The notes below the pieces were generated by a model that was given only the letters and a program-made list of their open reading frames with translations, was not told where the DNA came from and did not search any database. DNA of 64,000 bases, taken from an uncultured Christensenella sp. Lineage in GTDB: Bacteria; Bacillota; Clostridia; Christensenellales; UBA1242. Below are positions 3,232 through 21,504 of the stretch, in pieces. Positions within the stretch are counted from its first letter, which is position 1. Each line of letters starts with the position of its first letter. Where the stretch lies: contig CAJTYR010000004.1 in NCBI GenBank assembly GCA_910584295.1, positions 41,496-105,495 of the forward strand, given 5' to 3'. Position numbers and translations under genes: made by a program.

Positions 3232-6200
3232 ATGAAGAAGAAGTCCATTTTCCTATTTTTGTCGATGATTGTTTTGGGAGTATGCAGTGCTCTCGGATTT
3301 TTTAATATTAAGAGTGAGCAAGTGCATGCTGAAAGTTCTGTTTATGAAGGAAGCACAACTGCAAGTGTGTGGGAGGGGACTTGTGAGAACGAAGTTGATG
3401 AGACTGATTTCTTTACGATTTCTGCAACAAAAGAACATCACATTTTGACTGCTCGAGGATTTGGATTTTTTGCACAAAGGGTTACATCTGGACTTTACCC
3501 TTTCATTGACGAAAAAGTTTTTCTTGATTGTGACATTGATTTGGCAAAACATGAATGGAAACCAATTGGCTATGACGATGGACATTCTTTCAAAGGCACC
3601 TTTGATGGACAAGGACACTCAATTTACAATTTAAAAATTTCGCAAAAGACATCTGACTATGCTGGACTTTTTGGTTTTGCAACAGGTTCAATTTCAAACC
3701 TTTGTTTAAAAAATGTTGACATTGAAGTTGATGGAGCGAGAAGTGTAGGCGCTTTGGCAGGAAATTTGACAGGGAATGTTTACAGCAACATTTCAGTTTC
3801 TGGGGAGATTGTTGCAAATGGTGCAACGTATGTTGGTGGTGTGATTGGAGAAAGTTCAACTTCTGCGCTTCGTAACATTTCAAATATAATGTCAGATGTT
3901 GTGATTTCTGCAACTTGCAGTGGCACAGGCAGTGCTGTGGGTGGTGTGTTTGGAAGATATGCTGTCGGAAATGGTGTCATCGAAAATGTTGCATTCAAAG
4001 GGAGTATCACAAAAACAACTGCAACTTATGCTGCAGGAATTCTTGGGCAACTTGATGCGTTTTCAAATTTGAGAAATTCATACAATGTTGGCTCAGTTTC
4101 CAATTCTGGTGTAAACACTGCAGGTTTGGTTGGTTATGTGAATGGAACATCAAGTGGAAATAACAAATTATCAAATCTTTACAATGCTGGCGAATTGACT
4201 TGGCAAAATGGAAATGTAGCAGGTGTTTACACTTCTGGTCTTTTTGGACTTTTTGCTGGAGGAAAAACTTTTAATGTTGTAAATTGTGTTAATTTGGATC
4301 GTCGACAAATTTTAAGTGGAGATTCACAAAACTTTCCTCTTTACAGAAATGCAAATAATGCCACAATCAATGCAACTGGCACAAAATTTGCTGTGGATCA
4401 ATTTGCGACAAATTTGAAGGATGCGCAAAACTCTGTTCGTGGACTTGCTGACATGGCACGAAACAAAGGGGTTTATTCAAACACTGAAATTTTCCCTGAC
4501 ATGAGTGCAATTTGGGATTTTGAAAATGTTTGGGAAATTTCTTCTGGAATTAATGGTGGATTGCCATATCTTCTTTCAACTCAAAATTTGGGACTTGCAA
4601 ACAACGATCAGCAAGAGGTCTCAAGTTTGAAGGGCGAAGGGACTTTTGAAAATCCATTTTTGATTGAGACGGCTGCTGACCTTGGATTTTTGTCATCTCA
4701 TTATGTTGGAGGCAACAACAATGGTGCTGAAGAGTGGAGAGGGAAATATTATTCTCTCCAAAACGATATTGATTTGACTGGCAAGAATTGGCAACCAATT
4801 GGTTATTCAACTGACAGTGCATTTACTGGTGTGTTTGATGGGAACGGACATGCAATTGTTGGAATGACATGCTCTTTGCAATTTAAATATTCCTATCATG
4901 GTCTTTTTGGTGTGACAGATGGTGCGGTCATCAAAAATCTTGAAATCAGAGATCCAAGATTTATCAATGGCGGAGCTGAAGATAACATCGTTGGAGCATT
5001 GGTTGGCTATGCTGCTGGAAATACATACATTGTCAATTGCAAAGTGCCAGTGAAGTTTGATGAGCAAGATTTGAGTGCGGTTGGGAAAGCAGATAATGGC
5101 ACTCTAACAATTGCTTATGGAAAAAATAACCTTGTTGGAAATGAATTGACAACGCTTGCTGTTCCTTCAAACGCAACAACCACTTATGATGTTGAAGTTG
5201 AAGGCAATGGCGGAACTTTCTATGATGAGAAAGGAAAAGTTGTCAGAGGTTCTTATCATGTGATTGTTGGGGAAGGCGGAAATATTATTGAGCAAAGCAT
5301 TGATGCTGGCTTTAAAAAAGAACTCCCTTCACTTTCTGAAAAATTTGGTTCTGATGAAAAACCTAATGCTTGCACTTTGATTAGACGAGGTTATAAACTT
5401 CAAGATTTCATAGTTGGCGGAAACAAAGTTGCAGACATTGGAGCAACCTCAGTTAGTGCGTCAAATATGGCGGATTTGATTTCTGGAATTATTGCAAACT
5501 ACGGAAAACAAAACTCGAAAAATGTTCAAGTGGTCTACAATCAATATGAGGTTGAAAACTTTGGAGCAACATCTTCAAATGATTATTTGAGAAGTGAAGA
5601 ATTTGAAGTTGAGTATGACTCAATTTTAAGTCTTGACTATCCACAAATTTTCAGAAAGGATGTAAAAAAAGATAGTGATGATCTTCTTCGTGGAACGGGC
5701 TTCTCAATTGCTGGTTTCTATTTCAGAACAACGGAAGAGGGGTTGTTTGGCAAAGAAGTTGATGAAACCGCTTTTGCCAATGATACATCTTTGCCTAACC
5801 CAACAAGTGAAGTATATGTCAAATGGGTTGGAAATACTGAAACTAAATATCAACTGAAAGTTGTGCTTGGCAAGGCTGACAATGTTGTGCTTGGCAAATT
5901 CAATCTTTTGGATGCGATTGAAAGTGTATCTTTGCAATCATGGGGAGATCAAGGAACAGAATTTAACAAAAGTGCAACTCTTCAAGAAGAAAATGGAAAA
6001 GTTATTGTTTCTTTTGATTTTGACAGCACTCACAGTGACATGGCAGATAATGGTGTTAAGCTTTCAGTTAAACTTAAAGGTGGCTATGAATTTTCACAAA
6101 ATGTTTTGATTTCAGATTTTGATGGAGAGCATGATTTCGGTCATTTGGCATTTGGAAGTTCAAATGCTTCAAACATTGTCAATGGAGAGCCGAAAGCTTT

Positions 6201-9200
6201 CAATGAATCTGTTTTAAGCGATGGTTTGATTTTGCGAAATCTTGTTGGAGAATATACCATCAACATCACACTACAAAGAAAAACTTTCACCACAGCGACA
6301 AATGTAAGCTCTGAAGAAGTTTTCTTTGCAATTGCTCCAAACATTCCAAATGTTGAAGCGATTGAAATTTATCCAAATGGTTTTGGCGGAGACCCAAGCG
6401 TTGCAAATCCAACAACAAAACTTTTGGAGAATGAAACCTATCTTGGTTTTGATGCAATCAATCAAAAGTTTGTTTCAGGCTTGGCGTCAGTTGGCTCTGA
6501 AGAAAATCCAAGCGGAGTTGCGTTTGATTTTAATTTGACAGGTTATGATGAAATTTTGCTTGGATATAGATTCCGACAAGACGGAAATTTGATGACAAGG
6601 TATTTCAAAATTGTAAAAGAAATAAATGATGCAAGCGTTGATCAAAGATATGCTTATTCATATTTTGAAGCGGTATATGAAAATGGCGAATGGAAAAATA
6701 TTGACCTTATTGCAAAACTTTATGTTTCAGCAAATGGCGATGCAACAAGCTTAACATATCTTATGGCTTCAGAGTTTTCGATTATTGGCTCTGTGAAAGA
6801 CAACATCTCTGACACTGTGATTTCCAAAGACGGATATGATGACTTTGGAGATGGTGGTGAACTGGATGGAAAAGAAAATGCAAACACTGAGATCTTGGTG
6901 ATGGAAGAAAGTGGGCTTAAGAAACTTCGTCACGACATCAAGATTGAAAAGGTTATGGGCAAATTTTCCAGCCAAATTGGATTTACTGCAACTGCAACAA
7001 CTGACACAAAAATCACACTGATTTCAAAATATACAAAAGTTTCCATTGATTTGAAATTTGTTGAGTATGTTAATGGAGAAAAAAGAGAAATTGTTGGAGA
7101 ATACGCTCCAAAAGTCATTCTTGAAAATGGAACAAATTATCAGCTTCCAGCTGGAGAAGAAAATCAATCAATTCCATTCAAATTTGTTTCATCAGATTTT
7201 TATAGGCTTCATGAGAGCAAGTTTGATGACAGATTGTCTGTTGTTTTGAGTGATGGAATTGATCCAAACATCTTGATTACAGCGGAGACGGTTGCTCTTG
7301 AAAATGGAGAGACGGATAATGGTGCAAGTTGGAAGGCAACTTTCAATGCGACAAACTCAAATTATTTTGGAGGAAGTTGGATTGTCAAGAAGGACGCGGT
7401 TAAAGAGAACAAAAGTAACCAAGATAATTATGACACATACACCTTTTCCATTATTTTTGGTGGAACTGGAAGACAGCCTATCCGTGCAGGACGATATTTG
7501 GTTGAAATCATTTGCGATCAAATTGAATATGCTTTAAATTTTGATACCAAATTTGTTCAATATAAGCAAGATGGAAAGTATACAAAAAAAGATTTTACTA
7601 CAGAAAGTGGAAATGGTGCACCTTCTGCACATGCTTCAGTTAAAGCACATGGTTCAGCTGATGAAAATTATGAAATGATTGAATCTGGTTTTGACAGGTT
7701 GTCGTACAATTCTGATTTGAAAATGGAAACAGGACTTGGGGCTGTCAGTGCATATTCATTTTTTGACTGGTATGTGGAAGGTGAACTTTGGTCAGGCTTC
7801 TTAAGTGAAATAAATAGAGAGTGGGGAAGAGAAGAAGCTTTTGAATTTTCTTATTCACAAATTTATGACTATTTTTCAACTGAAGTTTTGAATGTAAACA
7901 AACCGAAAGACTATACATTAAGTTTAAGTGCGATTTATGTAAGAAAAGAAATTCACATAAGTTTTCCAAGCACAGATGGAAGAGTTTCAGTTGCTGGACA
8001 AGATGTCTATGTGACTGCAAGAAGTTTGGGACTTGAAATATCAGTTTCTTCACTTGATTATTCCTATGCCTATGAGACTTCAATTTCAGATGATGTAAAT
8101 TGGAATCTTAACTTTGCAAAATCAGGGACAAATGGCGACTCTTACTATTTCAGTGGATTTATTGTTTTAAATGCATCAAATGCTGTTGTTAAGCGTGTTG
8201 ATGTTGCAAGTGAAAGTGGTGCATTCACGGATGCAGGAGTGTTTAAAAACAACTACTCAATAAAAAGTTTTGTTATTGATAAACTTGAAAATGATGAAAC
8301 TCTTCTTTCTTCAACATCTTACACGATTGTTCCTATGGTGACGAGAAAAACCGCAAACTTGTTTGTTGTTTCTGGAACGGGAAATGGAATTGATGGAGCC
8401 TTTACTGATGGTAAAAACGGCGATGTATTCTATCGTGATGGTGACAACAAGATCTCAACGACAAACACAATTGTTGAAATTGGGAATGTCAATGTTGGAG
8501 ACACGCTCTATTTGAATTTTGAAATTGACGCAAAAGTTGATGGTGGATTGAGAAGTGTTGTTGTTGACAGATTGTTTGCAGAAAGAACAGGTTACTCTGC
8601 ACCAGCAAATGGATATTGGAGTTGGTCAAACGGAGCGCAGTCGGGACAACTTAATGGTTCTCAACTTTACATTGCAAGCTCATATTTTGATGGCACAAGT
8701 GAAGATAATACTTCAATTAATCTCGTGGTCTATAAGACTTGGATTGCAAATTCTTACACCATAACCTTTGCAAGAAATCAAGGAATGTTTGGTGGAGACA
8801 ATGCCTCAAACGAAAATTTGACTGTGACAGTTTATTATGATTCAAAAGTTGAAAATGCTCTTACAAGTGATGACATCTCAAGGATTGGACATTCTCTTTC
8901 TGGTTGGACATATGAGATGGACAACAATGATCAAATTGTCTTTGATGCAGACGGACAAACTTTGGGACTGGAAGGTGTTTTTGACGCAGAGGGGAATTAT
9001 GTCTCAACAGGAAATCTTTATGTATATGCTTTGTGGACACCTAAAAACTATGTGGTTCAACTTGTGACAAATGGTGCGAACACAATTGCTGGAGAGGATG
9101 CGGGAGAAACTCTTGAGTTTGAAATCGCATATGGATCAACATTTGCTGATGCTTTCGAAAAACTTGGACTTTCTGGTGGTGATAATTCGCCAGTGCGTGA

Positions 9201-12200
9201 AGGTTTCACATTCAATGAGATATATGCCAATGGGGCTTATAGACAAACAATTACTTCAAACACAATTTTCAGTGAGACGCTGCCAAGTTGTTTGTTGAAA
9301 GAAGACGGAAGTGCATCCATAGTTCTTTACATAGATTGGAAATTTGACAAAACATATGTGGATTTGAGTTTTGAAAACAGTCAAATTTCTAGGACATACA
9401 CAGCAAATGAAATTTCAATCTTCTTGGCGGAGTATTTCAAGGCCGGCTTTAATGCAAAGGGTTATGTTATTGAAGTTGTTGACGATCAAACTATTTCAAT
9501 TTCCATGAAAGATGAAACCCACACAAGTGTGACTGTTGAACTTGTTTCAAGCTCTCTTGAGGTTTCTGGAAATTCATCATTCGAAGTGAGAAATGTTGGA
9601 AGATATAATGTTTCTTTGGTTTTGACAATTGTTGATGATATTGGTGCTGGGGAAGCTTTATACAGTCAAACAATAAACTTGTTTGCACAAGTTGAAGCGG
9701 CAAACCTTTCAGGCATGTTGGATGGTGACAATGAGGGGGTTTGGCTTGCAAATGTCAAGAGACTTATGGCAGACTTTGTTTCAGATGATACTCAAGCAAG
9801 GCTTGAAAATTGCTATACTTTCACCGCATTTGTAAACAACATTGCAAAAAGCATGGACAATACAATTCCATCCAATGTGACAAACAAGCAGGTCTATGAA
9901 TTTGTTGCTTATAAATATTATTACATGATTACTTCAGCACAATACTCTCGCTTCAAGCAAATGACTTATGCAGATTTTGTGAAAGTAAAAGAAGAAAATG
10001 GCGTAGATGTTGAAAATGTTCTTGAAAGAGTTAATTTCTTCGACTTCTTTGATCATAAGTCAGAAGGCGTGAAAACAATTTCAATGTATAACAGCAGCAT
10101 TCAACTTACATCTTCAACTGTTGAAAATCCAAATGCGGAAGTTTTGATTGACAGAGTTGAGATTGTGGCAGACTCTATCAATGTGGATTCAATGTATTAT
10201 TTCAGAGCAGTTATCAAAAACTCGGGTGAAGATAGCAATTTAAATAATTATGCTTTGAGTTTTGATGAGAATGGTGAGGCTTACATATATTTGGGCAGAA
10301 TTTATATAATGCCAGAACTCTTTCTTATTGAGAGTGAAACAAAAAACAATTCAACATATTACAATGCAAATGTTCTTAATGTGACTGCTCCATGGCAAGA
10401 TGGAAGAATTGCTTGTGATGTGGAAAACTTTGAAGAGTATTTCAAAATTGACGAAAATCTTTTCGCTCGAGCAAATCTCTTCACTTCAAATCTTGGAAAT
10501 GAGAGAATTGACACAGATTTCAATTTCCTTTCTTCTGACAATTTCCTCTATTTCGATAATTTGTCGGTTTATGAAAAAACCTTTGTCGAAGAAGAAATTG
10601 TTATGGTTGATGTGACAAACAAATTTAAATTTGTTCTTGACAAAAATTATGTCTTTACAATCCTTAATATTGATGGTGTGGCATCTATTGAAATCTCGGC
10701 AAAATATCTGTCCTATATTGATGGGTTCATGACCTTTGCAGACTTGCCAGCATCATCTCCAAACGATTTGCTTAAGATCACTCAAGTGACTTATGATTTT
10801 GGAGGAGGTGTAAAGAGAATTGCAAATTCAACTGATGGATTGCAAGAAAGAGCATACGAGGAAGATGGAAACATAATATGTCAGGTTGAGAAAAACAACT
10901 GCAATACGGTTTCAATCATCTTGTCAAAATTTGCAAAATCTGTCACAGTTATGACAAACGAAAAATCGCTGACAGAATATATTGCACTTTATAAATGGGC
11001 AGACAATCCAACCTACAATATTGATGGAACAATGGAAAACAATACGAGTTTCACAATCAACAAGGACTCTTTGGAAGAAAGTGAAGGTGGGCTTTCAACT
11101 TACAATTTCTATGCAGTTTACACAGACATGGTTTTGGTGAATTATAATCTTAATTTCCCAAGCAACTATGGAACATCTTCTCCAACAACTTCTTGGTTGA
11201 AATTGGGAGAGTCAACAATAGACGAACTTTTGCTTCCAAATGAAAGTGGATTCAAACTTGCAACTTTGACATTGACAAAGACAAAAGAGTCTTATGAAAG
11301 TATTTTTGACAATGTCGATGGAAAGTTTAAGGGGCTTCTTCCAACTGATAGACACGCAAAAGTTGAACTTGAAGCAAAGTGGCAAATCGAAGAGATGAAT
11401 TATGAGCAGACGCTCACAGAATACAGAACAAGTGTCTATGGCTTTGATTATTTGGCGGTTTCCAGTGTTGTCAACATATACAACAAAAATGACAATTTGT
11501 TTAACTACTCTTATGAATGGTTTAAGGGAGAAAAACTTCTCTCAAAACTTGAAAGATTTTCTCTTGAAGGAAATGGAACAATTGAGGAAAGTGGGACTTA
11601 CAGGCTTGTTGTAACAGCAAATGTCAAGAAAGAATTTTTGTCAACTGCTCTTGTCAATAGTGAAGGAGCGACAAGTTCTTTCGAGGTTTCATTCGACCTA
11701 GAATTCATCAAAAACAAATTGCTCTCAATCACTTTTGCTGGCGAAAATCATTTTGAATATGACAGCACAAACCATATGAACGGCTGGCATGTATCCATTG
11801 AATATGCGGTTTATGACCCAACAACGGAAAGTTATTCAGAAAATCCAAGTTATGCAATTGAATATTTTGCAGCAGCAAAGAATCTTGATTTCCTTATCAA
11901 GAGAAATGGGCAGACAACTTCAACAATGAAGGATGCTGGAACCTACATCATTTCTGCAACTGGAAAAGAAGATGTTTATTCAAATGCTGTGGAATTTGGA
12001 AAGGTGGAATTTGAGGTTGTAGTCAGCCCTTATGAAGTTGAACTTTCTGAACTTGAAATCAGATTTAAGCGTTATTTCAATGGACAAGAAATTAATCTTT
12101 CAAAAGAACATTATCTTGCAAACGAGAATGTTACTCTAAACTTTGAAAGACAATCGGGTGAGGATGTTGGAGTTTATGCTCTCATGCTTTCAAGCATTTC

Positions 12201-15200
12201 TGAAGATAAGAAAGAAAACTATCGTCTTAAAATGAATGGTGTTGTTGTTTTTGAAAATGGAGCGGTGACAACTGCTGGACAAACAACAAAGGTTGGAGAA
12301 TTTGAAATTGAGAAAAGTGGAACTTTGACACTTTCTTATGAAGTGACAGACTCAAACCCAGAGACGATTGAGGTTTCATACAGTGCGGACGGTTACAGAG
12401 TTGAACTTGATGGCTGGACTCTTAAAATATTCAATGGAGAAAATCTTTTGAAATCATTGAGGCTTCGCCTCTTTGATGAAACCGCAAAAGAGGAAATTAC
12501 ACGCAGTCAAATTTTGCAAATCTTGTCAGAAAATTTCAGGTCAGTTAATATTCAATTCTTCGACACGACGGCAAAAGATTTGGCTCGCTCAAGTGGAACT
12601 TATTCTTACGCTTTCTCTGGACTGGATGAAGTTTCAAATTATTTCTCAACTGTTGAGTTTGCAAAGGGTTATCAATTTGTTATTGGAAAGATCATAATTG
12701 ACATTTCAACTCTTGGCTTAAACAAAATTTATAATGGTAAGACAATTGAGTATTTCACTCAAACTGGTGCAAAAATCGAAGACATAGATGCTTTTGATGG
12801 GGTTTATGTTTCAGCAACCTATGAAAATGCTCATGTTGGCACAACAAGAGTTGATTTGAGTTTGCATGACACAAATGACAGTGGTGAGGTCTCAAATTAT
12901 CAACTTTCAGAGGGAAGCATGCAAGCAACAATCAGCAAGCTTTCTGCAACTCTCACAGCGGTTATGGACAAAGAAACTTTTGAGTATGGTGAGATTTCTT
13001 TGGCTAATCTTGAAAGCCATGTTGATAAAAATTACAAAATTGTTGATGGTTTAGGAAATGATGTTTCCGCACTTCTTGCAAGTGGGTATTACAACATTTC
13101 ATACTTCTTGCTTTCAACAGTAAAAACAAATGCAAGCGGATTTGTGTATGCGGGGACATATGATCTTCAAGCCACAGCATCCTTTGATGATTTCAATATG
13201 ACATTGAAACTTCCAAAGATTAAGATCGGACAGAAGAAAATAGAAAAAGGAATTTCTGTTGGACAAATAAGCATTTTGGCAAGCGAATCAATTGCTGATA
13301 CATACAAAGAAGAATACACAATCACGGAAACTGGTGACACTTTCTCAATCATATACAATGTGGTTGGCGGAATTGTTGAAAGCAACACAAGTGGAGATTT
13401 CTATAATTTGGCATTGGCTTTCAATGAATATGTAAATTCAAGTGTTCTCATTTCAATCCAAACAGACAACAAAGGCTTTGTTGTCAAACCTGAGGAAAAT
13501 CTTGTTTATATTGTTCTTGACAAAACTAAATTAGACAAAGCTATTTACAATGGCTTCGCATACAACTTCAGTGTGGATGTGGGAAATAAACAACTTTTGA
13601 TTTCAAACAATGGCATATTTACAAATGTTGACTTCTCATTTGTTTATGCAAATGGGGGTGCATCTGCAGACGATGTTGTGCTTTCAGAACTAGAAATCTT
13701 CTCTGGCGCAAACGCAAAGAGTTTTGCTGATGCTGGGTCATATAGATTGTCATTTAGGGCGACATCTTCAACGCATGCAAACTTTGCATTTCAAGAAGAA
13801 TATATGTTCCAAATTGCAAAGAGAGAAGTTGATGCAAGAACGCTCAATCTTGAAAGAACTTATAGTGGCTCTGCAACATTTACAATAGATGATTTTGATG
13901 GTAAAGTTGGAGAAGATGGGGTGTCATTGATTGCAAAATTTGCAAGTGCAAATGCCGGCGATGAAATAGACGTAAGCCTCTTCTTACAAGGCACAAAAAG
14001 TGTAAACTACGAACTTAAGAACGCTGATGGTCTTAAAGGAAAGATTAAGAAAGCGGAAGCCTATGTTGAACTTGTGAAAACAGAATTTATCTATGGCAAT
14101 TTGACTTCAAGAGATTCTGCTCCTTTCAGAGTGATTTCAGGTGGATTTGCTGTTTCCGCATCACAATATCAAGTGACATTGACACTTGAAAACTCAACTT
14201 ATTCTGCAGTGGGATATTTAGAGTGCAACACTTATCTGGTTTCAATGAGTACAATGTTTTCTACAAACTACAACATAACTTTTGCTGATAATCAAAGAAT
14301 CACTGTTTCTCCATTCTCATTTTCAGTTTCCCTTGCTACAAGTGGACAATTCTCATATGTCTATGGAGCGCCAGAGACAACAACTGATATTTTTGTTGGG
14401 AACTATCAAACTCCGCTCAATGAAACAATTGGATTGAGTTTCACAAGAGAAATGGGGCAAGAAGTTGGGTATTACAAAGTGCTTTCAGCAATGTCAACTT
14501 CAAAAAATTACATCGTCACAGAAACAACTGATCGAAGTGATGGTGCATTTAGAATTTTGAAAAAACAAGATGTGGTTTATATTTTGATGAGTAGTTCTGA
14601 TGTTGTTTTGGGCAGCGAAAAAGAAATTTCAACAATCACTTATGATGGAAATCTCTACGACAAAGTTTCTGTTGTTCAAAAGTCTGGTAGCAAGGATTAT
14701 CAACTTGTCTATGAGAGTTCTGAAACATCAACAGCAAAACAATTCTATGATCTTAATTTCTATTCTTACAACAGCGAGACAGATGAATATACTCGCTTGA
14801 CTGATGTGACAATTGATGGACTTAATGCAAAGATTGAGTTTGCAAACTCTGAAGGTGGAAGAAGTGTTGGAGAATATTTGCTCAATGTTCAAAATGCTAC
14901 TGCGGACAATTTCTCTGTTGTTCTTGGAAAATATGGACTTCAAAGTTTCTATCTCAACATCGAAAAAAGAGATGTCTATTTCTTGGATAGAAAAGTGTCA
15001 AAAGTATTTGACAATCAAGATGCCGAGATTGTTTATGAAGATCCAACACAGCTTTTGGATGGAATTTTGGCTTCTGATGTTGACAAACTTAAACTTATAA
15101 TAAGAATTAAGTCTGGGGACGCTCTTGCAAAATATGTTGGTTATTCTTACTCTGTGGAAGCGGAACTTGAAGGTGGAACTAACTATCGTCTTAACCTTGA

Positions 15201-18200
15201 GTCTCTTCAACATGAAAGTCTTATTGGACAAATTTTGCCTGCCGAGCTTATCATTTCTGTAAACAATCAAACTTTTGTTTATGGAGAAGAAATTGTAATA
15301 GATTTTGAGTATTCAACTGAAGTTGATCTTAATAAATATGACAGAGGCATGGGAATCAGTCTTCTTCCAATCGCCGAGGATGACAGATATTCAACAAGTG
15401 GTTCTTTGAGGGTTGGAGAATATGAAATGGGTTGCATTTTGGGCACTCCGGACTTCAAAGCAACTTACATTGTCAATGGCACTGCTGCAGACAATCTTTC
15501 AACAGCAACAGTGACAATTCTCAAAAAAGGTCTTTCACTTGAAGGTGTCAAACAAGAATTGGAAGAAATTTTCACAAAGACTTATGATGGAAGCACAGAA
15601 GTTTCTCTTACAGATGAAAGTGGTGCGGACAAACTTAGGCTTGTGGGGATTGTTTCAAAAGAAAGACCTGTTGAAGGTGCTGAAGATGAAACAACACAAG
15701 TTATGACAGATGATGTCAGACTTGAAAATGCAACTTATGAAAGAGAATCAATTGGCAAATCAATAACCATTAATTTTACCCTTGGTGGAACAGAAAGTGA
15801 TTTTGAAAACTATTCTCTTGCATCTTGGGGCTATGGAGTAATTGAGCCTGTTGTTGTTGGAATTGTTTTCAATTATAATGCAAATGGCAGTGATGTTAAG
15901 TCGAATGTTGAAACAAACAAACTTCCACAACTTTCAGCAATTGCCTTTCCATTTATGGATTCCTCAACGCTTACTGCAAATTCTGCGGACGCACAAACTA
16001 CTTCTGTAAGAAATTTTCCAACAAATTTGACTGGAAGATCTGGTTACAGGTTCCAGAAATGGACAATGTCATTCAAAGGTGAGCAGTTTGCTGAAGGAAC
16101 AGATGAGTATTCATATTTAAGATCGGTACTTGGTGTTTCTGGGCTTACATATGTTTATGACGCTGATGCAAAAGAGTTTATTATTGATGTTTCAAACAAT
16201 GCCGAAACAGTGAACTTCTTGGGACTTTTGCTTGGCAACGAAGCAGATATTTTGGGAACATATTACAAAAACCATGCAGGACAAAGTTTCACTTTTGACG
16301 CTGCTTGGGAGATTTTGAACTATCAAATAAGTGTTAAGATTGCAGATGAGAAAGGTGGAGATGCAAGTTTTGGAAAAGTTGTGCTTGATGCTGGTGATGG
16401 AAATCCAATTGAAATCACTTCTTCATATACAGGCAAATTTGACTATGGCACAAAAATCACTTTGCTTGCAACACCGGAAGAACATTGCTCATATGTTGGT
16501 TTCTACAATGCGACTGGAAGTATTTATTATGATAGTGGAACTGTGAATGGTGTCATTGTTACAGCAAGTGGCAATGGTGCACTTCTTACAGTGGAAAAAC
16601 TTGGCGGAACATTTAATTTTGTTGCAAGATTTGAGGCTGACAAGGTAGATGTTGAAGTTGACCTTTCACAAGCAACTGATGCGACAATTTCTTCAGAAAA
16701 GTTTACATTGAAAGAAGGTGGCATTTATTCTTGGAAAGCAACCTATCTTGAACTTGAAAATTTTGCTCTTTCAGATATTGGAATAAGCAGAGAGGGATTC
16801 TCACTTATATCAATAAGTGATGGAGAAGAAACCATAACAGATTTTGAAAACACAAAACTTTCAAGCTTGATTTCAGAAGGACAGACAACACTTATACTTA
16901 CTCCAAACTTTGATGCAGTTGGTGTGGTTGTAACTCTTGATTTTGCAGATGGAAAAACGGAAAACAAGAGAATCATCGTTCCATTTAAATCAAAATATTC
17001 TGAAAGTTCTGATTGGATTGAGACTCCAACAAGAGAGGGGTATGAGTTTGTCGGTTGGTATGATGGTGAAGAGAACGAGATAACTGGACAGAGCGTGCTT
17101 TCAACTATTGAAAATCACACTCTTACTGCAAGATGGAAAATTTTGAGTTTCGATCTTTCAATCACAGCAGAAAATGTGACGATTTCATCTGACAGTGTTG
17201 ATTTTGTTGTCAGTGGAAATTCTTATTCACTTGCTGATGTTGAATTTAACACAGAAGTTGTTTTCACAGTTTCAGCAAAACTTGGATACGAACTTACAGA
17301 AGAAGTTGTTGAAAAATGGAGCAAGTTCTTTGATGTGACAATTTCTGCAGGCGTTGCAAATGTTTCATTGAAGATGCCTGCGCAAGATGTTGTTTGCACA
17401 ATTGCATCAGTTGCATTAACAAACACAATCACAATCACAGGCACAAACATTGGACAAATTTTGGCTTATGATGTGACAGAAAGTGAAAATCCACTTGAAG
17501 TTGTGGCTGGCAAGGTGAATATTGAAACAGGAAGAACCCTCAAGTTGATTGTTTCAGCTGAGTATGGTTATCAAATGATTGAAGAATATGTTTGTATGGA
17601 TCCAGACGCAATCATTTCTCACAGCATTTCAAATGATGTTTTGACTTTGACTATTTCAAACATCTTGAGAGATATTTCAATTGAACTTTCAACTCTTGAA
17701 GTCATCAATGATGTCACAATAAGATTTAATGACAACGACATGATTTCAGCGTTTGTTGTTGGAGGAGTTAATTATAAAAATTCTCTTGAAACAATGCTTC
17801 CATTCAGGGTTGTTGAAGGCGAGAACCTTGAAATGTATGTGAAATACGAACATGGTTTTGAATATGACACAAGCGAGACTGAAGCAGGCTATTCAATCCT
17901 CTGCGAAAAGGCGACGGAAGGAGTCTATGGCGAAGAGGGTTATTATAAGATTATTGTTTCAAACATCGAATGTGACGGGCTTATCAACATTTTGGGCAAA
18001 CTTGCTCACTTTACAATTGAAACAAGAGTGCTTTCTTACAATGAACTTAAGCAACCAGTTGATGAACCTTCAAATAAGATTTTTATTGGGGGAGCGGAAG
18101 CTGGACAAACAAGCATTTCAGTTGAGTATGGCTCACAAATTAGCCTTTCATATCAAATGCATTCAACCTTCAATTTTGCGGGCTGGAGCAAAGATGGTGT

Positions 18201-21200
18201 CAATGTTTTCAGCACTGATGAAAATCTTGTTTATACAGTTGAAGACAATGAGACAATCTATGCAATCTTCTCTTCAATGAGGTTTACGATAAGATTTGGA
18301 ACTTATAATAATTACATTCTCTATTCTGAGTATTCAGATCCAAACAGAGAAAGAGAAATTTATCAAGAAATTGTTGGCAAAGGTGAAAAATATATTGATG
18401 CCGACAGCAGAGAAGAACTCGACTCCCTTGTGCTTTACTATGGTGCAAGCAAGACAATATCTTATGTCGTGCCTACTGGTTATCGCTTCTATGGTTTTGG
18501 ATATTACAAAAATTCAGAATTTGTGATGCTTAATGTTGATGAAACTGATGCAAAAGAAGCGACTTTCACAATTTCAAGCCTTGAACTTGACGAAGATGTT
18601 GTAAACTTCACGCTCTATGTCATTGTCAAAGCATACAGCTTCAACATAAACATCAACACCGCAATTGATATTGATGGTATTCGAGAAGAAAACATTGATG
18701 TTGGCGGAGCGAAACTTGTTGGACATCGTGGCGAAGATGTCAATGCTTTTGGCTATGTTGAGGGAACAAGGACAAGATACAGCAACGATGACTTTGTGAA
18801 TGGAAATCTTGCAGATGACAGACATTTCAAAGTTGTTGGCTTTACAGGTGAAAATGTCTATATAAAAGTTAACACAAGAAAACCTGGCTATAAATTCTTG
18901 AATGTTGCATCAAATTCATCAGAAATCACAATCTCCGAAATTGAAAAAACTGACACCTATGCAATTTACCTGATTTCAGGTGCAATTGGTGGAAAAGAAT
19001 TTGATGTTGATGTTTTGTTTAAGCCAAACTTAAACGACATCAAGATTGGTTTCAAACTTGGAGAAAATGCTGTTGATGGCGGTGCAATCACATATATGAC
19101 TGACGAGAAAAACAGTCATAAAGTCTTTGCATCAGGACGAGACTATTCATCAATCACAGTCTCAGCTTACACTGACAGCAGATTTGAGGTCTTTGCTTAT
19201 GTGAGAACTGGTTTTGAAATTGACCCACAAAATATTCAAATTGTTTGTCAAAACGACATCATTGACAGGAATTCAATTGAATACACACCACTTTCAATCA
19301 CAAAAGATGGATTTACTGGTAGAGTTAAATTTGTTGTAAGAGATTTCCTTTTTGAAAACGAAATCGTTCTCAAGTTGGAAACAACAAAATACACAGTCAA
19401 GTTTGTTGAAGAAGGAAAGACTTTGGCAATTGTCAAAGACGTTGAGTTTGGATCAAAACTTAATCTCAATCAAACAAATGAGGAAAACATTCAGATCATT
19501 GGTTCTGACACAGGATTGAAGTTTGTTGACGGAAAACTTGAATTTTTGATGGAAAAAGAAAACTATCGTTTTGAAGGTTTGTTTACAAGTGAAAATGGTG
19601 CTGGAACAATGTATATTGATGCAAACGGAAAAGTGCTTTCTGATTGGTTTGAAAGCGGATATAAGCTCAACAGTTTGACATCAAGATATGAGCTTACTGA
19701 AAATGCATATTTCAACACTCAAACAGGGCAGATGGAGATTTCTCTTTATGTTTATTGGTCATATTATAAGACAAGGATAAAGTTTAATCTTGTTCCAGAT
19801 GTCAATTTAAATGTGACCGCACAAGACATGGTTTCTGGAGTGGACTACACAAATTCTTGGTTCTATCCAACTTCAAAATATTATATTGAAGTGGCGTTTA
19901 ACACAAACATATATATCAAAGCTCCAAAAATAAATGGATATAAATTCTATAAATTTATCATCAAGCAAAGAGACATCAATGGCAATGCTCTTGAAGATGT
20001 TGTGACATTCTCTGAAGAGGTGCCATGGTCAACAAACGAACTTGACAACATTGTAGAATGTGAAGTTCAAATCATATACTTTGCACAGATTGACGTTGTT
20101 GTGTTTGGTGGTGAAGGAACCTTCAGAGTTGAACAAGAGTCAGCTGACTCACAAGCAATGATGCTTAACTCCGAAAATTATGTTGACACAACAAAGATAT
20201 TTAAACTTGTGGCTGTGTATGATGAAAACAACTTTGATTTTGTCAGATGGAACAACATCACATCAGGGCAAAGTTGGTGGTCAAAAGAGTGGGATGGACT
20301 TCAAGTTAGGGCAAGGACAACGCTTATTCTCAACTTGCAAGGAAGAACCTTCACCATGAGTTTTGAAAATCCTAACGGACAACTTTACGACTTCACTTTT
20401 GGACAAGTTTTGAATGTCATCACAACTTCCTCAGACAATAATGTGAAAGCATATAGATTGGGTTATTACAGCGCAGGTAAGTTTATTCCAACGACAAACA
20501 CGGTCGATGTCAGCGTCGGAGACAGGGTGACACTTGCAGTTTCAATTGACTATGGATTTGTTGCAATTTGGAATAATGATGCAATCACATTCTCAAATTA
20601 TACAGATGGAATTTACTATTTTGATATGAATATCACAGACTGCCCACCAGATGCAGTTTTGAGAATATTGCCAGAATTTAAAAACGAAATTCTTTCAGTT
20701 TATCTTGATCGAGACTTCGTTGAAAAAGACAAAGTCAAAGATGCAATAGATTTCAATTCGGTTAGTATGGCAGGCAGTGCAACTTTTGGCGGAAGAAAAG
20801 TAAATTCATTTACAGTTAATTCTGCAGTAGAAAGCATAAATGTGAAACTTACTACAAATGCAAGATACAAGATAAGTTCAATTGTAGTGAAAAACTATGA
20901 TAAGGTTTTTGCAAATGTTGAAGCGTTTACGACTGACAAAGGCGATATTCTTCTTTCAAGGAAATTCTTGGATGACAACAACATTGTTGGAACAATCCAA
21001 ATTGTAATCAGATATGAAAGAATCCTTTGGGAAGATCATCTTGTCACTCAAACTTCATTCAAAGGAAAGGGGACAGACGAAGATCCTTACCAGATTTCGT
21101 CTGTTGAAGATCTTGTCCTTATGATGAGGCTTTGCAACAGCGGTGCATTTGCATCAGGTGGCAAGCAATATAGAAGTGCAAGTTATATTTTGATGAAAGA

Positions 21201-21504
21201 TCTTGATCTTTCGGAGAAGTTCTGGACGCCTATTGGCACGATAATGTATTCATTCAATGGCTCCTTTGATTTCAACAAACATAGAGTGAAAGGTGTTTTC
21301 AACGCACTCATCTATGACACTGTAAGTTATGGTGGTCTCTTTGGAGTGCTTTCTCCAAACGCTGTCTTTGTTGAAGCAAAGACGGAGAAGTGGTATATCT
21401 ATCTCATCATAGGTATTGTTGCATTTCTCGTGATTGTCATTGTAATTCTTATCATTTTGGCAAAACGACGCAAGAAGCGTAGAGAAAAATTGGCAACTGC
21501 CTGA
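3232..21504 (+). CDS. giant (6,090 aa) modular surface protein: signal peptide, GLUG-type modules, Listeria-Bacteroides (Flg_new) repeats, MBG/YDG-like modules, divergent InlB-B-repeat-like modules, C-terminal TM anchor
   Basis: Uninterrupted 18,273-nt ORF with GAGGAG SD. Signal peptide MKKKSIFLFLSMIVLGVCSALG..VHA/ES. W.PIG..F.G.FDG.GH.I...GLFG modules at nt ~3550-3680, ~4780-4915 and ~21215-21345. GHSLSGWTYEMD..LYVYALWTPKNY (~8755-9060) and REGYEFVGWYDGEE..LTARWKI (~16900-17145). F.YG / KTYDG modules ~12000-15900. C-terminal WYIYLIIGIVAFLVIVIVILIIL + KRRKKRREK. Confidence 0.9.
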   Translation: MKKKSIFLFLSMIVLGVCSALGFFNIKSEQVHAESSVYEGSTTASVWEGTCENEVDETDFFTISATKEHHILTARGFGFFAQRVTSGLYPFIDEKVFLDCDIDLAKHEWKPIGYDDGHSFKGTFDGQGHSIYNLKISQKTSDYAGLFGFATGSISNLCLKNVDIEVDGARSVGALAGNLTGNVYSNISVSGEIVANGATYVGGVIGESSTSALRNISNIMSDVVISATCSGTGSAVGGVFGRYAVGNGVIENVAFKGSITKTTATYAAGILGQLDAFSNLRNSYNVGSVSNSGVNTAGLVGYVNGTSSGNNKLSNLYNAGELTWQNGNVAGVYTSGLFGLFAGGKTFNVVNCVNLDRRQILSGDSQNFPLYRNANNATINATGTKFAVDQFATNLKDAQNSVRGLADMARNKGVYSNTEIFPDMSAIWDFENVWEISSGINGGLPYLLSTQNLGLANNDQQEVSSLKGEGTFENPFLIETAADLGFLSSHYVGGNNNGAEEWRGKYYSLQNDIDLTGKNWQPIGYSTDSAFTGVFDGNGHAIVGMTCSLQFKYSYHGLFGVTDGAVIKNLEIRDPRFINGGAEDNIVGALVGYAAGNTYIVNCKVPVKFDEQDLSAVGKADNGTLTIAYGKNNLVGNELTTLAVPSNATTTYDVEVEGNGGTFYDEKGKVVRGSYHVIVGEGGNIIEQSIDAGFKKELPSLSEKFGSDEKPNACTLIRRGYKLQDFIVGGNKVADIGATSVSASNMADLISGIIANYGKQNSKNVQVVYNQYEVENFGATSSNDYLRSEEFEVEYDSILSLDYPQIFRKDVKKDSDDLLRGTGFSIAGFYFRTTEEGLFGKEVDETAFANDTSLPNPTSEVYVKWVGNTETKYQLKVVLGKADNVVLGKFNLLDAIESVSLQSWGDQGTEFNKSATLQEENGKVIVSFDFDSTHSDMADNGVKLSVKLKGGYEFSQNVLISDFDGEHDFGHLAFGSSNASNIVNGEPKAFNESVLSDGLILRNLVGEYTINITLQRKTFTTATNVSSEEVFFAIAPNIPNVEAIEIYPNGFGGDPSVANPTTKLLENETYLGFDAINQKFVSGLASVGSEENPSGVAFDFNLTGYDEILLGYRFRQDGNLMTRYFKIVKEINDASVDQRYAYSYFEAVYENGEWKNIDLIAKLYVSANGDATSLTYLMASEFSIIGSVKDNISDTVISKDGYDDFGDGGELDGKENANTEILVMEESGLKKLRHDIKIEKVMGKFSSQIGFTATATTDTKITLISKYTKVSIDLKFVEYVNGEKREIVGEYAPKVILENGTNYQLPAGEENQSIPFKFVSSDFYRLHESKFDDRLSVVLSDGIDPNILITAETVALENGETDNGASWKATFNATNSNYFGGSWIVKKDAVKENKSNQDNYDTYTFSIIFGGTGRQPIRAGRYLVEIICDQIEYALNFDTKFVQYKQDGKYTKKDFTTESGNGAPSAHASVKAHGSADENYEMIESGFDRLSYNSDLKMETGLGAVSAYSFFDWYVEGELWSGFLSEINREWGREEAFEFSYSQIYDYFSTEVLNVNKPKDYTLSLSAIYVRKEIHISFPSTDGRVSVAGQDVYVTARSLGLEISVSSLDYSYAYETSISDDVNWNLNFAKSGTNGDSYYFSGFIVLNASNAVVKRVDVASESGAFTDAGVFKNNYSIKSFVIDKLENDETLLSSTSYTIVPMVTRKTANLFVVSGTGNGIDGAFTDGKNGDVFYRDGDNKISTTNTIVEIGNVNVGDTLYLNFEIDAKVDGGLRSVVVDRLFAERTGYSAPANGYWSWSNGAQSGQLNGSQLYIASSYFDGTSEDNTSINLVVYKTWIANSYTITFARNQGMFGGDNASNENLTVTVYYDSKVENALTSDDISRIGHSLSGWTYEMDNNDQIVFDADGQTLGLEGVFDAEGNYVSTGNLYVYALWTPKNYVVQLVTNGANTIAGEDAGETLEFEIAYGSTFADAFEKLGLSGGDNSPVREGFTFNEIYANGAYRQTITSNTIFSETLPSCLLKEDGSASIVLYIDWKFDKTYVDLSFENSQISRTYTANEISIFLAEYFKAGFNAKGYVIEVVDDQTISISMKDETHTSVTVELVSSSLEVSGNSSFEVRNVGRYNVSLVLTIVDDIGAGEALYSQTINLFAQVEAANLSGMLDGDNEGVWLANVKRLMADFVSDDTQARLENCYTFTAFVNNIAKSMDNTIPSNVTNKQVYEFVAYKYYYMITSAQYSRFKQMTYADFVKVKEENGVDVENVLERVNFFDFFDHKSEGVKTISMYNSSIQLTSSTVENPNAEVLIDRVEIVADSINVDSMYYFRAVIKNSGEDSNLNNYALSFDENGEAYIYLGRIYIMPELFLIESETKNNSTYYNANVLNVTAPWQDGRIACDVENFEEYFKIDENLFARANLFTSNLGNERIDTDFNFLSSDNFLYFDNLSVYEKTFVEEEIVMVDVTNKFKFVLDKNYVFTILNIDGVASIEISAKYLSYIDGFMTFADLPASSPNDLLKITQVTYDFGGGVKRIANSTDGLQERAYEEDGNIICQVEKNNCNTVSIILSKFAKSVTVMTNEKSLTEYIALYKWADNPTYNIDGTMENNTSFTINKDSLEESEGGLSTYNFYAVYTDMVLVNYNLNFPSNYGTSSPTTSWLKLGESTIDELLLPNESGFKLATLTLTKTKESYESIFDNVDGKFKGLLPTDRHAKVELEAKWQIEEMNYEQTLTEYRTSVYGFDYLAVSSVVNIYNKNDNLFNYSYEWFKGEKLLSKLERFSLEGNGTIEESGTYRLVVTANVKKEFLSTALVNSEGATSSFEVSFDLEFIKNKLLSITFAGENHFEYDSTNHMNGWHVSIEYAVYDPTTESYSENPSYAIEYFAAAKNLDFLIKRNGQTTSTMKDAGTYIISATGKEDVYSNAVEFGKVEFEVVVSPYEVELSELEIRFKRYFNGQEINLSKEHYLANENVTLNFERQSGEDVGVYALMLSSISEDKKENYRLKMNGVVVFENGAVTTAGQTTKVGEFEIEKSGTLTLSYEVTDSNPETIEVSYSADGYRVELDGWTLKIFNGENLLKSLRLRLFDETAKEEITRSQILQILSENFRSVNIQFFDTTAKDLARSSGTYSYAFSGLDEVSNYFSTVEFAKGYQFVIGKIIIDISTLGLNKIYNGKTIEYFTQTGAKIEDIDAFDGVYVSATYENAHVGTTRVDLSLHDTNDSGEVSNYQLSEGSMQATISKLSATLTAVMDKETFEYGEISLANLESHVDKNYKIVDGLGNDVSALLASGYYNISYFLLSTVKTNASGFVYAGTYDLQATASFDDFNMTLKLPKIKIGQKKIEKGISVGQISILASESIADTYKEEYTITETGDTFSIIYNVVGGIVESNTSGDFYNLALAFNEYVNSSVLISIQTDNKGFVVKPEENLVYIVLDKTKLDKAIYNGFAYNFSVDVGNKQLLISNNGIFTNVDFSFVYANGGASADDVVLSELEIFSGANAKSFADAGSYRLSFRATSSTHANFAFQEEYMFQIAKREVDARTLNLERTYSGSATFTIDDFDGKVGEDGVSLIAKFASANAGDEIDVSLFLQGTKSVNYELKNADGLKGKIKKAEAYVELVKTEFIYGNLTSRDSAPFRVISGGFAVSASQYQVTLTLENSTYSAVGYLECNTYLVSMSTMFSTNYNITFADNQRITVSPFSFSVSLATSGQFSYVYGAPETTTDIFVGNYQTPLNETIGLSFTREMGQEVGYYKVLSAMSTSKNYIVTETTDRSDGAFRILKKQDVVYILMSSSDVVLGSEKEISTITYDGNLYDKVSVVQKSGSKDYQLVYESSETSTAKQFYDLNFYSYNSETDEYTRLTDVTIDGLNAKIEFANSEGGRSVGEYLLNVQNATADNFSVVLGKYGLQSFYLNIEKRDVYFLDRKVSKVFDNQDAEIVYEDPTQLLDGILASDVDKLKLIIRIKSGDALAKYVGYSYSVEAELEGGTNYRLNLESLQHESLIGQILPAELIISVNNQTFVYGEEIVIDFEYSTEVDLNKYDRGMGISLLPIAEDDRYSTSGSLRVGEYEMGCILGTPDFKATYIVNGTAADNLSTATVTILKKGLSLEGVKQELEEIFTKTYDGSTEVSLTDESGADKLRLVGIVSKERPVEGAEDETTQVMTDDVRLENATYERESIGKSITINFTLGGTESDFENYSLASWGYGVIEPVVVGIVFNYNANGSDVKSNVETNKLPQLSAIAFPFMDSSTLTANSADAQTTSVRNFPTNLTGRSGYRFQKWTMSFKGEQFAEGTDEYSYLRSVLGVSGLTYVYDADAKEFIIDVSNNAETVNFLGLLLGNEADILGTYYKNHAGQSFTFDAAWEILNYQISVKIADEKGGDASFGKVVLDAGDGNPIEITSSYTGKFDYGTKITLLATPEEHCSYVGFYNATGSIYYDSGTVNGVIVTASGNGALLTVEKLGGTFNFVARFEADKVDVEVDLSQATDATISSEKFTLKEGGIYSWKATYLELENFALSDIGISREGFSLISISDGEETITDFENTKLSSLISEGQTTLILTPNFDAVGVVVTLDFADGKTENKRIIVPFKSKYSESSDWIETPTREGYEFVGWYDGEENEITGQSVLSTIENHTLTARWKILSFDLSITAENVTISSDSVDFVVSGNSYSLADVEFNTEVVFTVSAKLGYELTEEVVEKWSKFFDVTISAGVANVSLKMPAQDVVCTIASVALTNTITITGTNIGQILAYDVTESENPLEVVAGKVNIETGRTLKLIVSAEYGYQMIEEYVCMDPDAIISHSISNDVLTLTISNILRDISIELSTLEVINDVTIRFNDNDMISAFVVGGVNYKNSLETMLPFRVVEGENLEMYVKYEHGFEYDTSETEAGYSILCEKATEGVYGEEGYYKIIVSNIECDGLINILGKLAHFTIETRVLSYNELKQPVDEPSNKIFIGGAEAGQTSISVEYGSQISLSYQMHSTFNFAGWSKDGVNVFSTDENLVYTVEDNETIYAIFSSMRFTIRFGTYNNYILYSEYSDPNREREIYQEIVGKGEKYIDADSREELDSLVLYYGASKTISYVVPTGYRFYGFGYYKNSEFVMLNVDETDAKEATFTISSLELDEDVVNFTLYVIVKAYSFNININTAIDIDGIREENIDVGGAKLVGHRGEDVNAFGYVEGTRTRYSNDDFVNGNLADDRHFKVVGFTGENVYIKVNTRKPGYKFLNVASNSSEITISEIEKTDTYAIYLISGAIGGKEFDVDVLFKPNLNDIKIGFKLGENAVDGGAITYMTDEKNSHKVFASGRDYSSITVSAYTDSRFEVFAYVRTGFEIDPQNIQIVCQNDIIDRNSIEYTPLSITKDGFTGRVKFVVRDFLFENEIVLKLETTKYTVKFVEEGKTLAIVKDVEFGSKLNLNQTNEENIQIIGSDTGLKFVDGKLEFLMEKENYRFEGLFTSENGAGTMYIDANGKVLSDWFESGYKLNSLTSRYELTENAYFNTQTGQMEISLYVYWSYYKTRIKFNLVPDVNLNVTAQDMVSGVDYTNSWFYPTSKYYIEVAFNTNIYIKAPKINGYKFYKFIIKQRDINGNALEDVVTFSEEVPWSTNELDNIVECEVQIIYFAQIDVVVFGGEGTFRVEQESADSQAMMLNSENYVDTTKIFKLVAVYDENNFDFVRWNNITSGQSWWSKEWDGLQVRARTTLILNLQGRTFTMSFENPNGQLYDFTFGQVLNVITTSSDNNVKAYRLGYYSAGKFIPTTNTVDVSVGDRVTLAVSIDYGFVAIWNNDAITFSNYTDGIYYFDMNITDCPPDAVLRILPEFKNEILSVYLDRDFVEKDKVKDAIDFNSVSMAGSATFGGRKVNSFTVNSAVESINVKLTTNARYKISSIVVKNYDKVFANVEAFTTDKGDILLSRKFLDDNNIVGTIQIVIRYERILWEDHLVTQTSFKGKGTDEDPYQISSVEDLVLMMRLCNSGAFASGGKQYRSASYILMKDLDLSEKFWTPIGTIMYSFNGSFDFNKHRVKGVFNALIYDTVSYGGLFGVLSPNAVFVEAKTEKWYIYLIIGIVAFLVIVIVILIILAKRRKKRREKLATA

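Follow-up and report, generated by a model that had tools for sequence, protein, structure and literature searches.

A 6,090-residue protein of an uncultured Christensenella sp. as a candidate membrane-anchored surface fibre of a length-constant family

A 64,000-nucleotide stretch of DNA from an uncultured Christensenella sp. (GenBank assembly GCA_910584295.1, contig CAJTYR010000004.1, positions 41,496 to 105,495 of the forward strand), to which we refer as the window, carries a single open reading frame (ORF) of 6,090 codons between trpS and uppP. This ORF is a real single gene, selected as one long frame in many lineages. As judged from alignments, its product, henceforth the giant protein, is an ortholog within a conserved, colinear and length-constant family of an uncultured Clostridia lineage. 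The protein is probably a Sec-exported, type-I membrane-anchored giant surface fibre resembling fibrillar adhesins, as suggested by its terminal hydrophobic segments, by the predicted folds of two long segments and by the conservation of the whole architecture across the family.

A single gene and its family

Representatives, that is clusters at 50% identity, were searched exhaustively with HMMER using the last 1,200 residues of the giant protein as a query, yielding 1,343 proteins at E ≤ 0.001 and 67 at E ≤ 1e-30. At least 34 cluster representatives of 5,819–6,416 amino acids (aa) are colinear with the giant protein over 82–100% of the length, with 25–64% identity. The length of this family, referred to as the 6-kaa family (kaa, thousand amino acids), is nearly constant (mean 6,147 aa, coefficient of variation (CV) 2.6%) at a median pairwise identity of 31%. 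A second giant family of 4,347–4,740 aa (the 4.4-kaa family) has its last ∼900 residues in common with the 6-kaa family, at 27–30% identity. A word-indexed homolog search never gave the giant family; with aa 1–1200 as a query, only module-level GLUG/M26_N proteins of at most 2,082 aa were retrieved. No member of the 6-kaa family bears a name in any source checked, the close TrpS relatives are metagenomic without exception, and a literature search on this lineage and on giant proteins found nothing. Much larger bacterial proteins have been documented (bioRxiv 10.1101/2023.11.21.568195), so size alone does not make the giant protein exceptional.

The source of the gene is a short-read metagenome assembly and the product of one relative (P0137, locus L005) is called as 4,718 aa only, leaving 4.5 kb upstream uncalled, as might be expected if the frame resulted from faulty assembly or repeat collapse, or belonged to a decaying pseudogene still open by chance. 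Against this stands the observation that 6,090 open codons would arise by chance with a probability of ∼10^-208, based on base composition; the remaining five frames over the same interval contain 238–596 stops. The sequence of the gene is identical in two independent assemblies, L001 (SRR8909027, a 102-kb contig) and L002 (SRR8909076), and 34 intact, colinear relatives are of equal length. Self-BLAST of the giant protein yielded nine weak off-diagonal high-scoring segment pairs, nearly all of them between the head modules described below, and otherwise almost no repetition, which leaves nothing for the assembly to collapse. An artefact is thereby effectively refuted. A variable-repeat adhesin was also considered and rejected, because internal sequence repetition is almost absent, and the length of the family is constant.

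In two genomes from related species, one of them a mouse-gut metagenome-assembled genome, trpS is directly followed by an open frame exceeding 3,250 codons that is colinear with the giant protein. The giant proteins are 60% and 51% identical to that of the window, as opposed to 87% and 85% for TrpS, indicating a much faster divergence of the giant protein, typical of exposed proteins. Relatives in which the giant gene lies 3' of trpS are L003, L004 and L011 (TrpS at least 81% identical), and the order gltX-trpS-giant gene is kept down to 81% TrpS identity (L011, 6,172-aa product, at least 20 samples). The order giant gene-uppP is kept in L005; there, no gene is called upstream of the giant gene (positions 1–4514), for which a frameshift, faulty assembly or a genuine truncation in that sample could account. 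Universal linkage to trpS was rejected, since relatives with 72–77% identical TrpS have different neighbours. In the second family, the gene for P0171 (4,740 aa; L006/L007, two contigs, the one member looked up) adjoins, on the opposite strand, a gene of the tRNA-synt_1b type (TrpS/TyrS-type), a neighbourhood that hints at an old linkage.

These results agree with the first-pass annotation of the window, made from its letters alone, which had described one uninterrupted 18.3-kb ORF of 6,090 codons: there is no internal stop, and the 34 relatives and both assemblies confirm it. It had also reported a Shine-Dalgarno sequence and a cleavable-looking signal peptide (VHA/ES), for which we find GAGGAG at 3219–3224 and a family-conserved hydrophobic stretch at aa 4–26. 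Its placement of the gene between trpS and uppP (2000–2992 and 21561–22319, respectively) rather than in an obvious island is correct as well, GC content being 0.366 within the gene and 0.33–0.36 in the flanks.

Modular architecture and C-terminal cassette

The giant protein (mature form ∼671 kDa, isoelectric point 4.5) contains only two hydrophobic stretches, aa 4–26 and aa 6054–6077. By inspection, the family conserves the elements of the N-terminal secretion signal (MKKK, h-region and VHA/ES); an A-x-A-like site follows the h-region after ∼8–10 residues and precedes a conserved mature end, S..ASVWDG. Cleavage probably occurs after VHA. The C-terminal stretch is a transmembrane (TM) helix with a conserved start (W[YW]xYL), followed by the tail KRRKKRREKLATA with a charge of +8; the tail of the 4.4-kaa family ends in ..RKKKLEELANS. 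This single helix with its polybasic tail has the properties of a surface anchor and is absent from the known anchors listed previously (PMC8286594). LPXTG anchoring was not found, no LP.T[GASN] or NP.T[GN] motif being present anywhere in the 6,090 aa. The LPXTG_anchor model TIGR01167 scores 12.6–14.5 bits (cut-off 15.9) on the TM helix and tail only, NF041738 (GG_III-CTERM) scores 17.5–19.4 bits (cut-off 22) on the C-terminal 60–190 aa, and other NCBIfam sorting-signal models give generic TM-plus-basic matches to the tail far under their cut-offs. A Pfam scan covering the entire chain (E up to 1) detected no SLH, CWB2, LysM, GW or choline-binding domain. The signal peptide contains a Cys, but its LGVC, in which V occupies position −1, departs from the lipobox [LVI][ASTVI][GAS]C, and many members lack the Cys; a lipoprotein with both ends tethered was rejected for these reasons.

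Two other large secreted proteins encoded in the window, of 2,768 aa (52916–61222, minus strand) and 1,454 aa (48311–52675, plus strand), also have a signal peptide and a C-terminal TM helix with a basic tail, and neither carries LPXTG or a head. The former has no Pfam match and the latter has weak Ig-like matches only; BLAST revealed no similarity of either to the giant protein. TM anchoring thus looks like a habit of the lineage.

Heads of the type WxPIG...FxGxFDG...GLFG are found at aa 109, 520 and 5998 and share 38–43% identity in BLAST comparisons. Head 1 consists of a cap, WKPIG, FKGTFDGQGH and GLFG; head 2 of a G.GT..NPFLI cap, WQPIG, FTGVFDGNGH and GLFG; and head 3 of a cap helix, FWTPIGT, FNGSFDFNKH and GLFG. 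The first two open domains 1 and 2, the latter reaching a family mean identity of 49% at aa 501–600. A PDB sequence search with the raw giant protein gave no match; only a family profile did. This profile (A3; aa 40–460 from ten family members) covers domain 1 and matches PDB entry 3n6z ('putative IgA1 protease'; E 1.6e-21) as well as residues 156–426 of the S. pneumoniae IgA1 protease (6xjb/7jgj/6xja; E ∼2e-14), which constitute the beta-helical N-terminal domain of that enzyme. Pfam GLUG is matched by eight out of ten family N-terminal domains (best E 7e-13) and Peptidase_M26_N by five out of ten; the giant protein itself reaches 25.7 bits on Peptidase_M26_N (cut-off 27.7). Homologs of domain 1 carry PF05342/PF07581, and outside the family, proteins with modules of the domain 1/2 type contain several of them each, together with partner domains of many different kinds. 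On the strength of these profile matches, domains 1 and 2 are considered homologous to the N-terminal beta-helix domain of M26 IgA1 proteases.

Head 3 is joined by hhalign to domain 2 (probability 99.7%, E 3.9e-27) and domain 1 (probability 98.7%). It aligns to the start of domain 2 only, namely its first 105 residues, and is therefore a truncated module made up of a cap and first rungs. It stops exactly where GLUG rungs would go on, the TM helix starting ∼5 residues later. Its consensus conservation is 0.73 and its pLDDT (predicted local distance difference test) is ∼80 in the cap and 57–74 in the rungs. A head-profile search covered 26 members of the 6-kaa family (25 representatives and the window protein) and eight of the 4.4-kaa family. 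All 26 have a head at ∼aa 450–780 and another 40–150 residues from the C-terminus, and 25 of them, the exception being P0165, also score for a head at ∼aa 50–245. Exactly two heads, one per end, are present in all eight members of the 4.4-kaa family, and in neither family was a head found between the terminal ones. The combination of head 3, TM helix and tail lies at the extreme C-terminus in 72 of the best 150 hits. Among the carriers is P0164, which is complete at 918 aa and bears a signal peptide of its own; contig fragments make up many of the shorter hits. Sequence comparison thus identifies the truncated head, TM helix and basic tail as a conserved cassette found in two giant families. 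Upstream of the window (L001, 1–1721), a 3,762-aa protein ends in a GLUG-type head (GGQGTSQNPYLISN...) followed by beta-helix rungs, with no C-terminal TM helix, indicating that the genome encodes several very large proteins with the same head module.

Between the terminal domains, conservation rises toward the membrane, being lowest at aa 900–1700 and peaking at aa 5501–5600 (58% mean identity). The hypervariable aa 661–1700 have no Pfam match and, queried as aa 651–1750, no homolog in the word-indexed database. Further along, Flg_new (PF09479) is recognized at aa 4586–4633 with 35–37 bits (cut-off 27), and weakly at aa 1842–1907 and 4958–5011, and Flg_new_2 (divergent InlB B-repeat) at aa 4672–4723 and 4963–5015 with 32–36 bits (cut-off 23.6). 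TIGR02543 scores 29.4 bits (cut-off 20.95), in agreement with Listeria-Bacteroides repeats, and more Flg_new-like copies appear in a self dot-plot based on profiles, with self-matches at aa 1824–2061. MBG_2 is matched at aa 2963–3000 and 3628–3687, and YDG at aa 3539–3597 and 4114–4197; YDG reaches 25.9 bits and MBG_2 'YGX type' 24.9 bits, both against a cut-off of 25. The giant protein therefore has stalk module families in common, above or at the Pfam cut-offs, with known Flg_new, Flg_new_2, MBG and YDG proteins. It differs from these in that such modules are a minority in a much longer chain, most of the stalk escaping Pfam.

AlphaFold2 models built on family alignments span aa 1701–2900 and aa 4891–6090 (2,400 aa). 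The latter (model mb44e0b3e37b4, pLDDT 83.7), which partly covers the Listeria-Bacteroides/InlB-like block, is predicted as a series of beta-rich domains, with pLDDT mostly 80–92 at aa 5400–5936. In the modelled stalk, the only alpha-helical insert is a bundle of about seven helices at aa 2168–2267; its family identity to the window protein is 25%, and a few aromatic and lysine positions are conserved, vY.f...Kyy among them. Foldseek searches of both segments against the PDB returned tandem-domain fibres and arrays exclusively. For aa 1701–2900, these are Nup210 Ig arrays, the neck of the grappling-hook protein GhpA (E 3e-10), PitA, cadherins, SraP, YwfG and the Sap S-layer; for the membrane-proximal array, they are the B. 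anthracis TIE protein, PitA, T-antigen pilins, SpaC and Cna B repeats. The pilus adhesin RrgA and the S-layer arrays SbsB, Sap and Nitrosopumilus are also listed. GhpA of Aureispira (9flp/9flv/9flw), the second-best match of aa 1701–2900, would be alike as a giant fibre of serial Ig-like domains; this likeness is at the fold level only (9% identity), and GhpA belongs to a Gram-negative predator and has neither heads nor a C-terminal cassette. Serial beta domains, Pfam stalk families and Foldseek stalk matches together point to a stalk of the kind predicted for fibrillar adhesins.

The first-pass annotation had anticipated much of this. Two N-proximal heads and a third placed against the TM helix are indeed present, and its module order is essentially right, yet the strings quoted for the modules are rarer than implied: there is one KTYDG, and F.YG and F.[GR]W number four and three, respectively. 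The label 'GLUG-type' applies at the level of the family and its profile and not to the window protein itself, which does not match Pfam GLUG (PF07581) at E up to 1. Motif search and Pfam scans agree with its statement that LPXTG, S-layer and cell-wall binding domains are lacking. The C-terminal combination, which it did not recognize, is covered by no curated sorting-signal model, though it is not peculiar to this gene, as the 72 of the best 150 hits illustrate. Of the checks it had proposed, the HMM search recognized Flg_new, Flg_new_2, YDG and MBG_2 modules, and self-comparison gave weak sequence repeats and, in the profile dot-plot, a super-repeat of ∼375 aa. Of its proposal, a very long adhesive fibre or surface coat, the fibre is supported by the two AlphaFold2 segments, which are predicted strings of beta-domains matched by Foldseek to pilins, adhesin stalks, cadherins and S-layer arrays.

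Table 1. Features of the giant gene, its product and the flanking DNA (window coordinates)
Feature	Position	Strand	Basis and properties
Terminator-like hairpin 3' of trpS	2991..3016	+	11-bp stem and T-run; shuffles expect 0.2
Shine-Dalgarno GAGGAG of giant gene	3219..3224	+	7 nt ahead of ATG
Giant ORF, 6,090 codons and stop	3232..21504	+	ATG start; translation without internal stop
Signal peptide, aa 1-33 (MKKK, h-region aa 4-26, VHA/ES)	3232..3330	+	Hydrophobicity, family conservation; judged by inspection
Domain 1, aa 40-455: head 1, right-handed beta-helix, C-terminal cap	3349..4596	+	Family profile, GLUG type
Domain 2, aa 456-660: head 2, short beta-helix	4597..5211	+	Self-BLAST, profile self-comparison, external homologs
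Hypervariable family-specific region, aa 661-1700	5212..8331	+	13-27% mean identity, 75-86% occupancy
Stalk segment, aa 1701-2900, predicted beta-rich domains	8332..11931	+	AlphaFold2 model m88de090fb612, pLDDT 80.1
Predicted helical bundle, ~100 residues, aa 2168-2267	9733..10032	+	DSSP helices, model residues 468-567
MBG_2/YDG block, aa ~2890-4200	11899..15831	+	Pfam; ~375-aa super-repeat between aa 3081 and 4066 (3081-3366 ~ 3489-3701 ~ 3840-4066; profile self dot-plot)
Listeria-Bacteroides/InlB B-repeat-like block, aa ~4450-5475	16579..19656	+	Pfam, TIGR02543, profile self-matches
Membrane-proximal beta-domain array, aa 5400-5936	19429..21039	+	Most conserved in family, 32-58% identity
Head 3, aa 5937-6049, truncated GLUG-type head	21040..21378	+	hhalign, family conservation, model
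C-terminal TM helix, aa 6054-6077, WYIYLIIGIVAFLVIVIVILIILA	21391..21462	+	Kyte-Doolittle peak 3.8; one long helix in model
Cytoplasmic tail KRRKKRREKLATA, aa 6078-6090	21463..21501	+	Family consensus [KR]KRKKxRE[EK]L[AS]xK to last residue
Stem-loop and U-run between giant gene and uppP	21531..21589	+	Free energy -23.8 kcal/mol, z -3.5

Surface fibre and alternative explanations

In the explanation that we consider probable, the N-terminal signal peptide would lead the chain through SecYEG and be cut after VHA, the C-terminal helix would stop transfer and the polybasic tail would remain on the cytoplasmic side. The conserved membrane-proximal part (aa ∼5400–6049), ending in the truncated GLUG-type head, would be located at the membrane and inside the wall. 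It would be continued by a stalk of ∼50 non-identical beta-rich modules of Ig/pilin-like, MBG, YDG and Listeria-Bacteroides/InlB B-repeat-like types; taking ∼50 domains of ∼100 aa and ∼4 nm each, its length in an extended state would be on the order of 200 nm. The distal end would comprise the fast-evolving aa 661–1700 and the two conserved GLUG/M26_N-type beta-helix domains (aa 40–660), which would meet a ligand. We infer the extended conformation, the stalk length, a base crossing the wall, ligand binding by the tip and the adhesive role. The low conservation of aa 900–1700 compared with that of aa 5400–6090 fits a variable exposed part and a constrained base embedded in the envelope.

Fibrillar adhesins have been described as extracellular proteins with a terminal adhesive region, a stalk and an anchor, one or few chains spanning the whole fibril; in Gram-positive bacteria, the adhesive region is N-terminal and the anchor C-terminal (PMC8286594). 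In its secretion signal, stalk and anchor, the proposed fibre agrees with this description of fibrillar adhesin-like proteins; the N-terminal, non-stalk beta-helix region would be the adhesive one, in the Gram-positive order, and one or few chains would span the fibril. Compared with Gram-positive fibrillar adhesins (SraP, Cpe0147/TIE and PitA/SpaC/RrgA), the giant protein is alike in having a signal peptide, an N-terminal non-stalk domain, a long stalk in which beta-sandwich modules follow in tandem, and a C-terminal anchor, and its predicted stalk folds match. It differs in lacking an LPXTG/sortase signal, for which a TM helix following a truncated GLUG head is substituted, in having non-identical stalk modules with nearly no sequence repetition, and in its 6-kaa architecture, which is colinear and conserved in length throughout the family.

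Several points weigh against this explanation. To call the GLUG/M26_N beta-helix a binding tip is an assumption, and conservation is higher in the tip domains than in the segment beneath them. In many adhesins, the most variable part is at the tip. The presence of a head at both ends in two families is not explained by a simple tip-out fibre. Moreover, the structure models reach only aa 1701–2900 and 4891–6090, and their predicted template modelling scores (pTM 0.40–0.44) imply that the arrangement of domains, extension versus folding back, is not predicted.

Heads at both ends, in the 6-kaa (26 members) and 4.4-kaa (eight out of eight) families, would be accommodated by a surface coat, spacer or shield, in which both ends of the fibre would be held to the envelope of the cell that makes it. 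Wall polymers or the related membrane-proximal head would then be bound by the N-terminal beta-helix domains, with the C-terminus in the membrane, and a large number of copies would add up to a layer of fixed thickness for protection, cell spacing or envelope stability. A gene that is core-like, keeps its place between housekeeping genes, shows no island signature and varies so little in product length (CV 2.6%) is consistent with such a role, as are a tip that is conserved rather than diversified and the S-layer arrays (SbsB, Sap, Nitrosopumilus) among the Foldseek matches. There is also a precedent in Ebh of S. aureus, which has an N-terminal secretion signal and owes its anchoring to TM and cytoplasmic domains at the C-terminus; size-dependent shielding of other adhesins is a property of giant staphylococcal proteins (PMC6548404). 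Ebh (∼1.1 MDa) is similar in giant size and TM anchoring and may be a functional counterpart that acts as an envelope spacer or shield, but is not homologous and has no GLUG heads. Its stalk is made of alpha-helical repeats, that of the giant protein being beta-rich. Furthermore, Pfam scans revealed no SLH, CWB2, LysM or other wall-binding domain, lattice-forming contacts are without support, and the hypervariable segment points to a part exposed outward to selection, as it also would be in a fibre. On these grounds a coat is possible, though we rate it well below even chances. A related and still less probable proposal takes the cassette as a new anchoring or assembly signal and the protein as a structural element of fixed span rather than a free adhesin, which heads at both ends and constant length could mean. 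The uncapped heads could pair edge to edge and so bundle the fibres at the base, or the fibres could form loops or tethers, the N-terminal beta-helix being docked back on the envelope and setting the thickness of an outer layer.

The homology of the N-terminal domains to the N-terminal domain of M26 IgA1 proteases raises the question of a surface-tethered enzyme on a long stalk, either an IgA-protease-like peptidase or a glycan-degrading beta-helix enzyme. Homologs of the modules occur in proteins with heparinase II/III, GDSL lipase, glycosidase or subtilase domains, and right-handed beta-helices include polysaccharide lyases. The N-terminal beta-helix domain of IgA1 protease, however, is not its catalytic domain. 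An M26 peptidase was rejected for want of an HExxH motif: HExxH and HxxEH are absent from all 6,090 aa, no catalytic Pfam or NCBIfam family is matched at E up to 1, including PF07580 (Peptidase_M26_C), and the modelled segments consist of predicted beta-domain arrays and one small helical bundle only. What the giant protein appears to share with M26 IgA1 metalloproteases (6xja/6xjb/7jgj) and 3n6z is the beta-helix, to which domains 1 and 2 and the truncated head 3 are homologous by profile; it differs from them in the absence of the M26 catalytic domain and in having three such modules, the last of which is cut short and fused to a TM helix. An enzymatic role is therefore regarded as very unlikely, and a membrane-anchored fibre remains the preferred explanation.

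Flanking signals and implications

The local gene order is gltX, trpS, giant gene, uppP (BacA), P-type ATPase and holB. The terminator-like hairpin 3' of trpS, followed by a 239-bp AT-rich spacer, suggests that the giant gene is a separate transcription unit. Downstream, none of 200 shuffled sequences was as stable as the stem-loop between the giant gene and uppP, the 5' arm of which contains the uppP Shine-Dalgarno sequence (AGGAGG) and the loop of which contains the GTG start of uppP (21561). Both arms are kept in the distant relative locus L005, the remainder of the spacer being different. A simple terminator scan does not call this structure because its loop exceeds 8 nt. The role of the stem-loop may be to end the giant transcript, to gate translation of uppP, or both. 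T-box leaders are common ahead of aminoacyl-tRNA synthetase genes in Bacillota. In an Rfam scan of the 64-kb window, no family reached its gathering score and no T-box leader was found upstream of gltX, trpS or argS.

No new principle is involved, as the module types are known and the overall plan equals that of known surface fibres. In the literature and libraries searched, three aspects are undescribed: an orthologous family of ∼6,000 aa that is colinear, constant in length and has little internal sequence repetition; the C-terminal cassette, consisting of a truncated GLUG-type head, a TM helix and a conserved basic-acidic tail; and the heads-at-both-ends design common to two giant families. 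Nearly half of the predicted fibrillar adhesin-like proteins are without a recognized anchor (PMC8286594), and this locus supplies a well-defined, recurrent candidate anchor cassette that can be converted to an annotation profile. It likewise defines an unnamed, strictly metagenomic family of ∼6,000 aa conserved in gene order and length, in an uncultured Clostridia lineage that has an assembly from mouse gut as its closest genome record. With each copy amounting to ∼671 kDa, the giant protein is likely a dominant determinant of the contact of these cells with their surroundings, and the family lends itself to a natural test of the reasons for constant length in some giant proteins.

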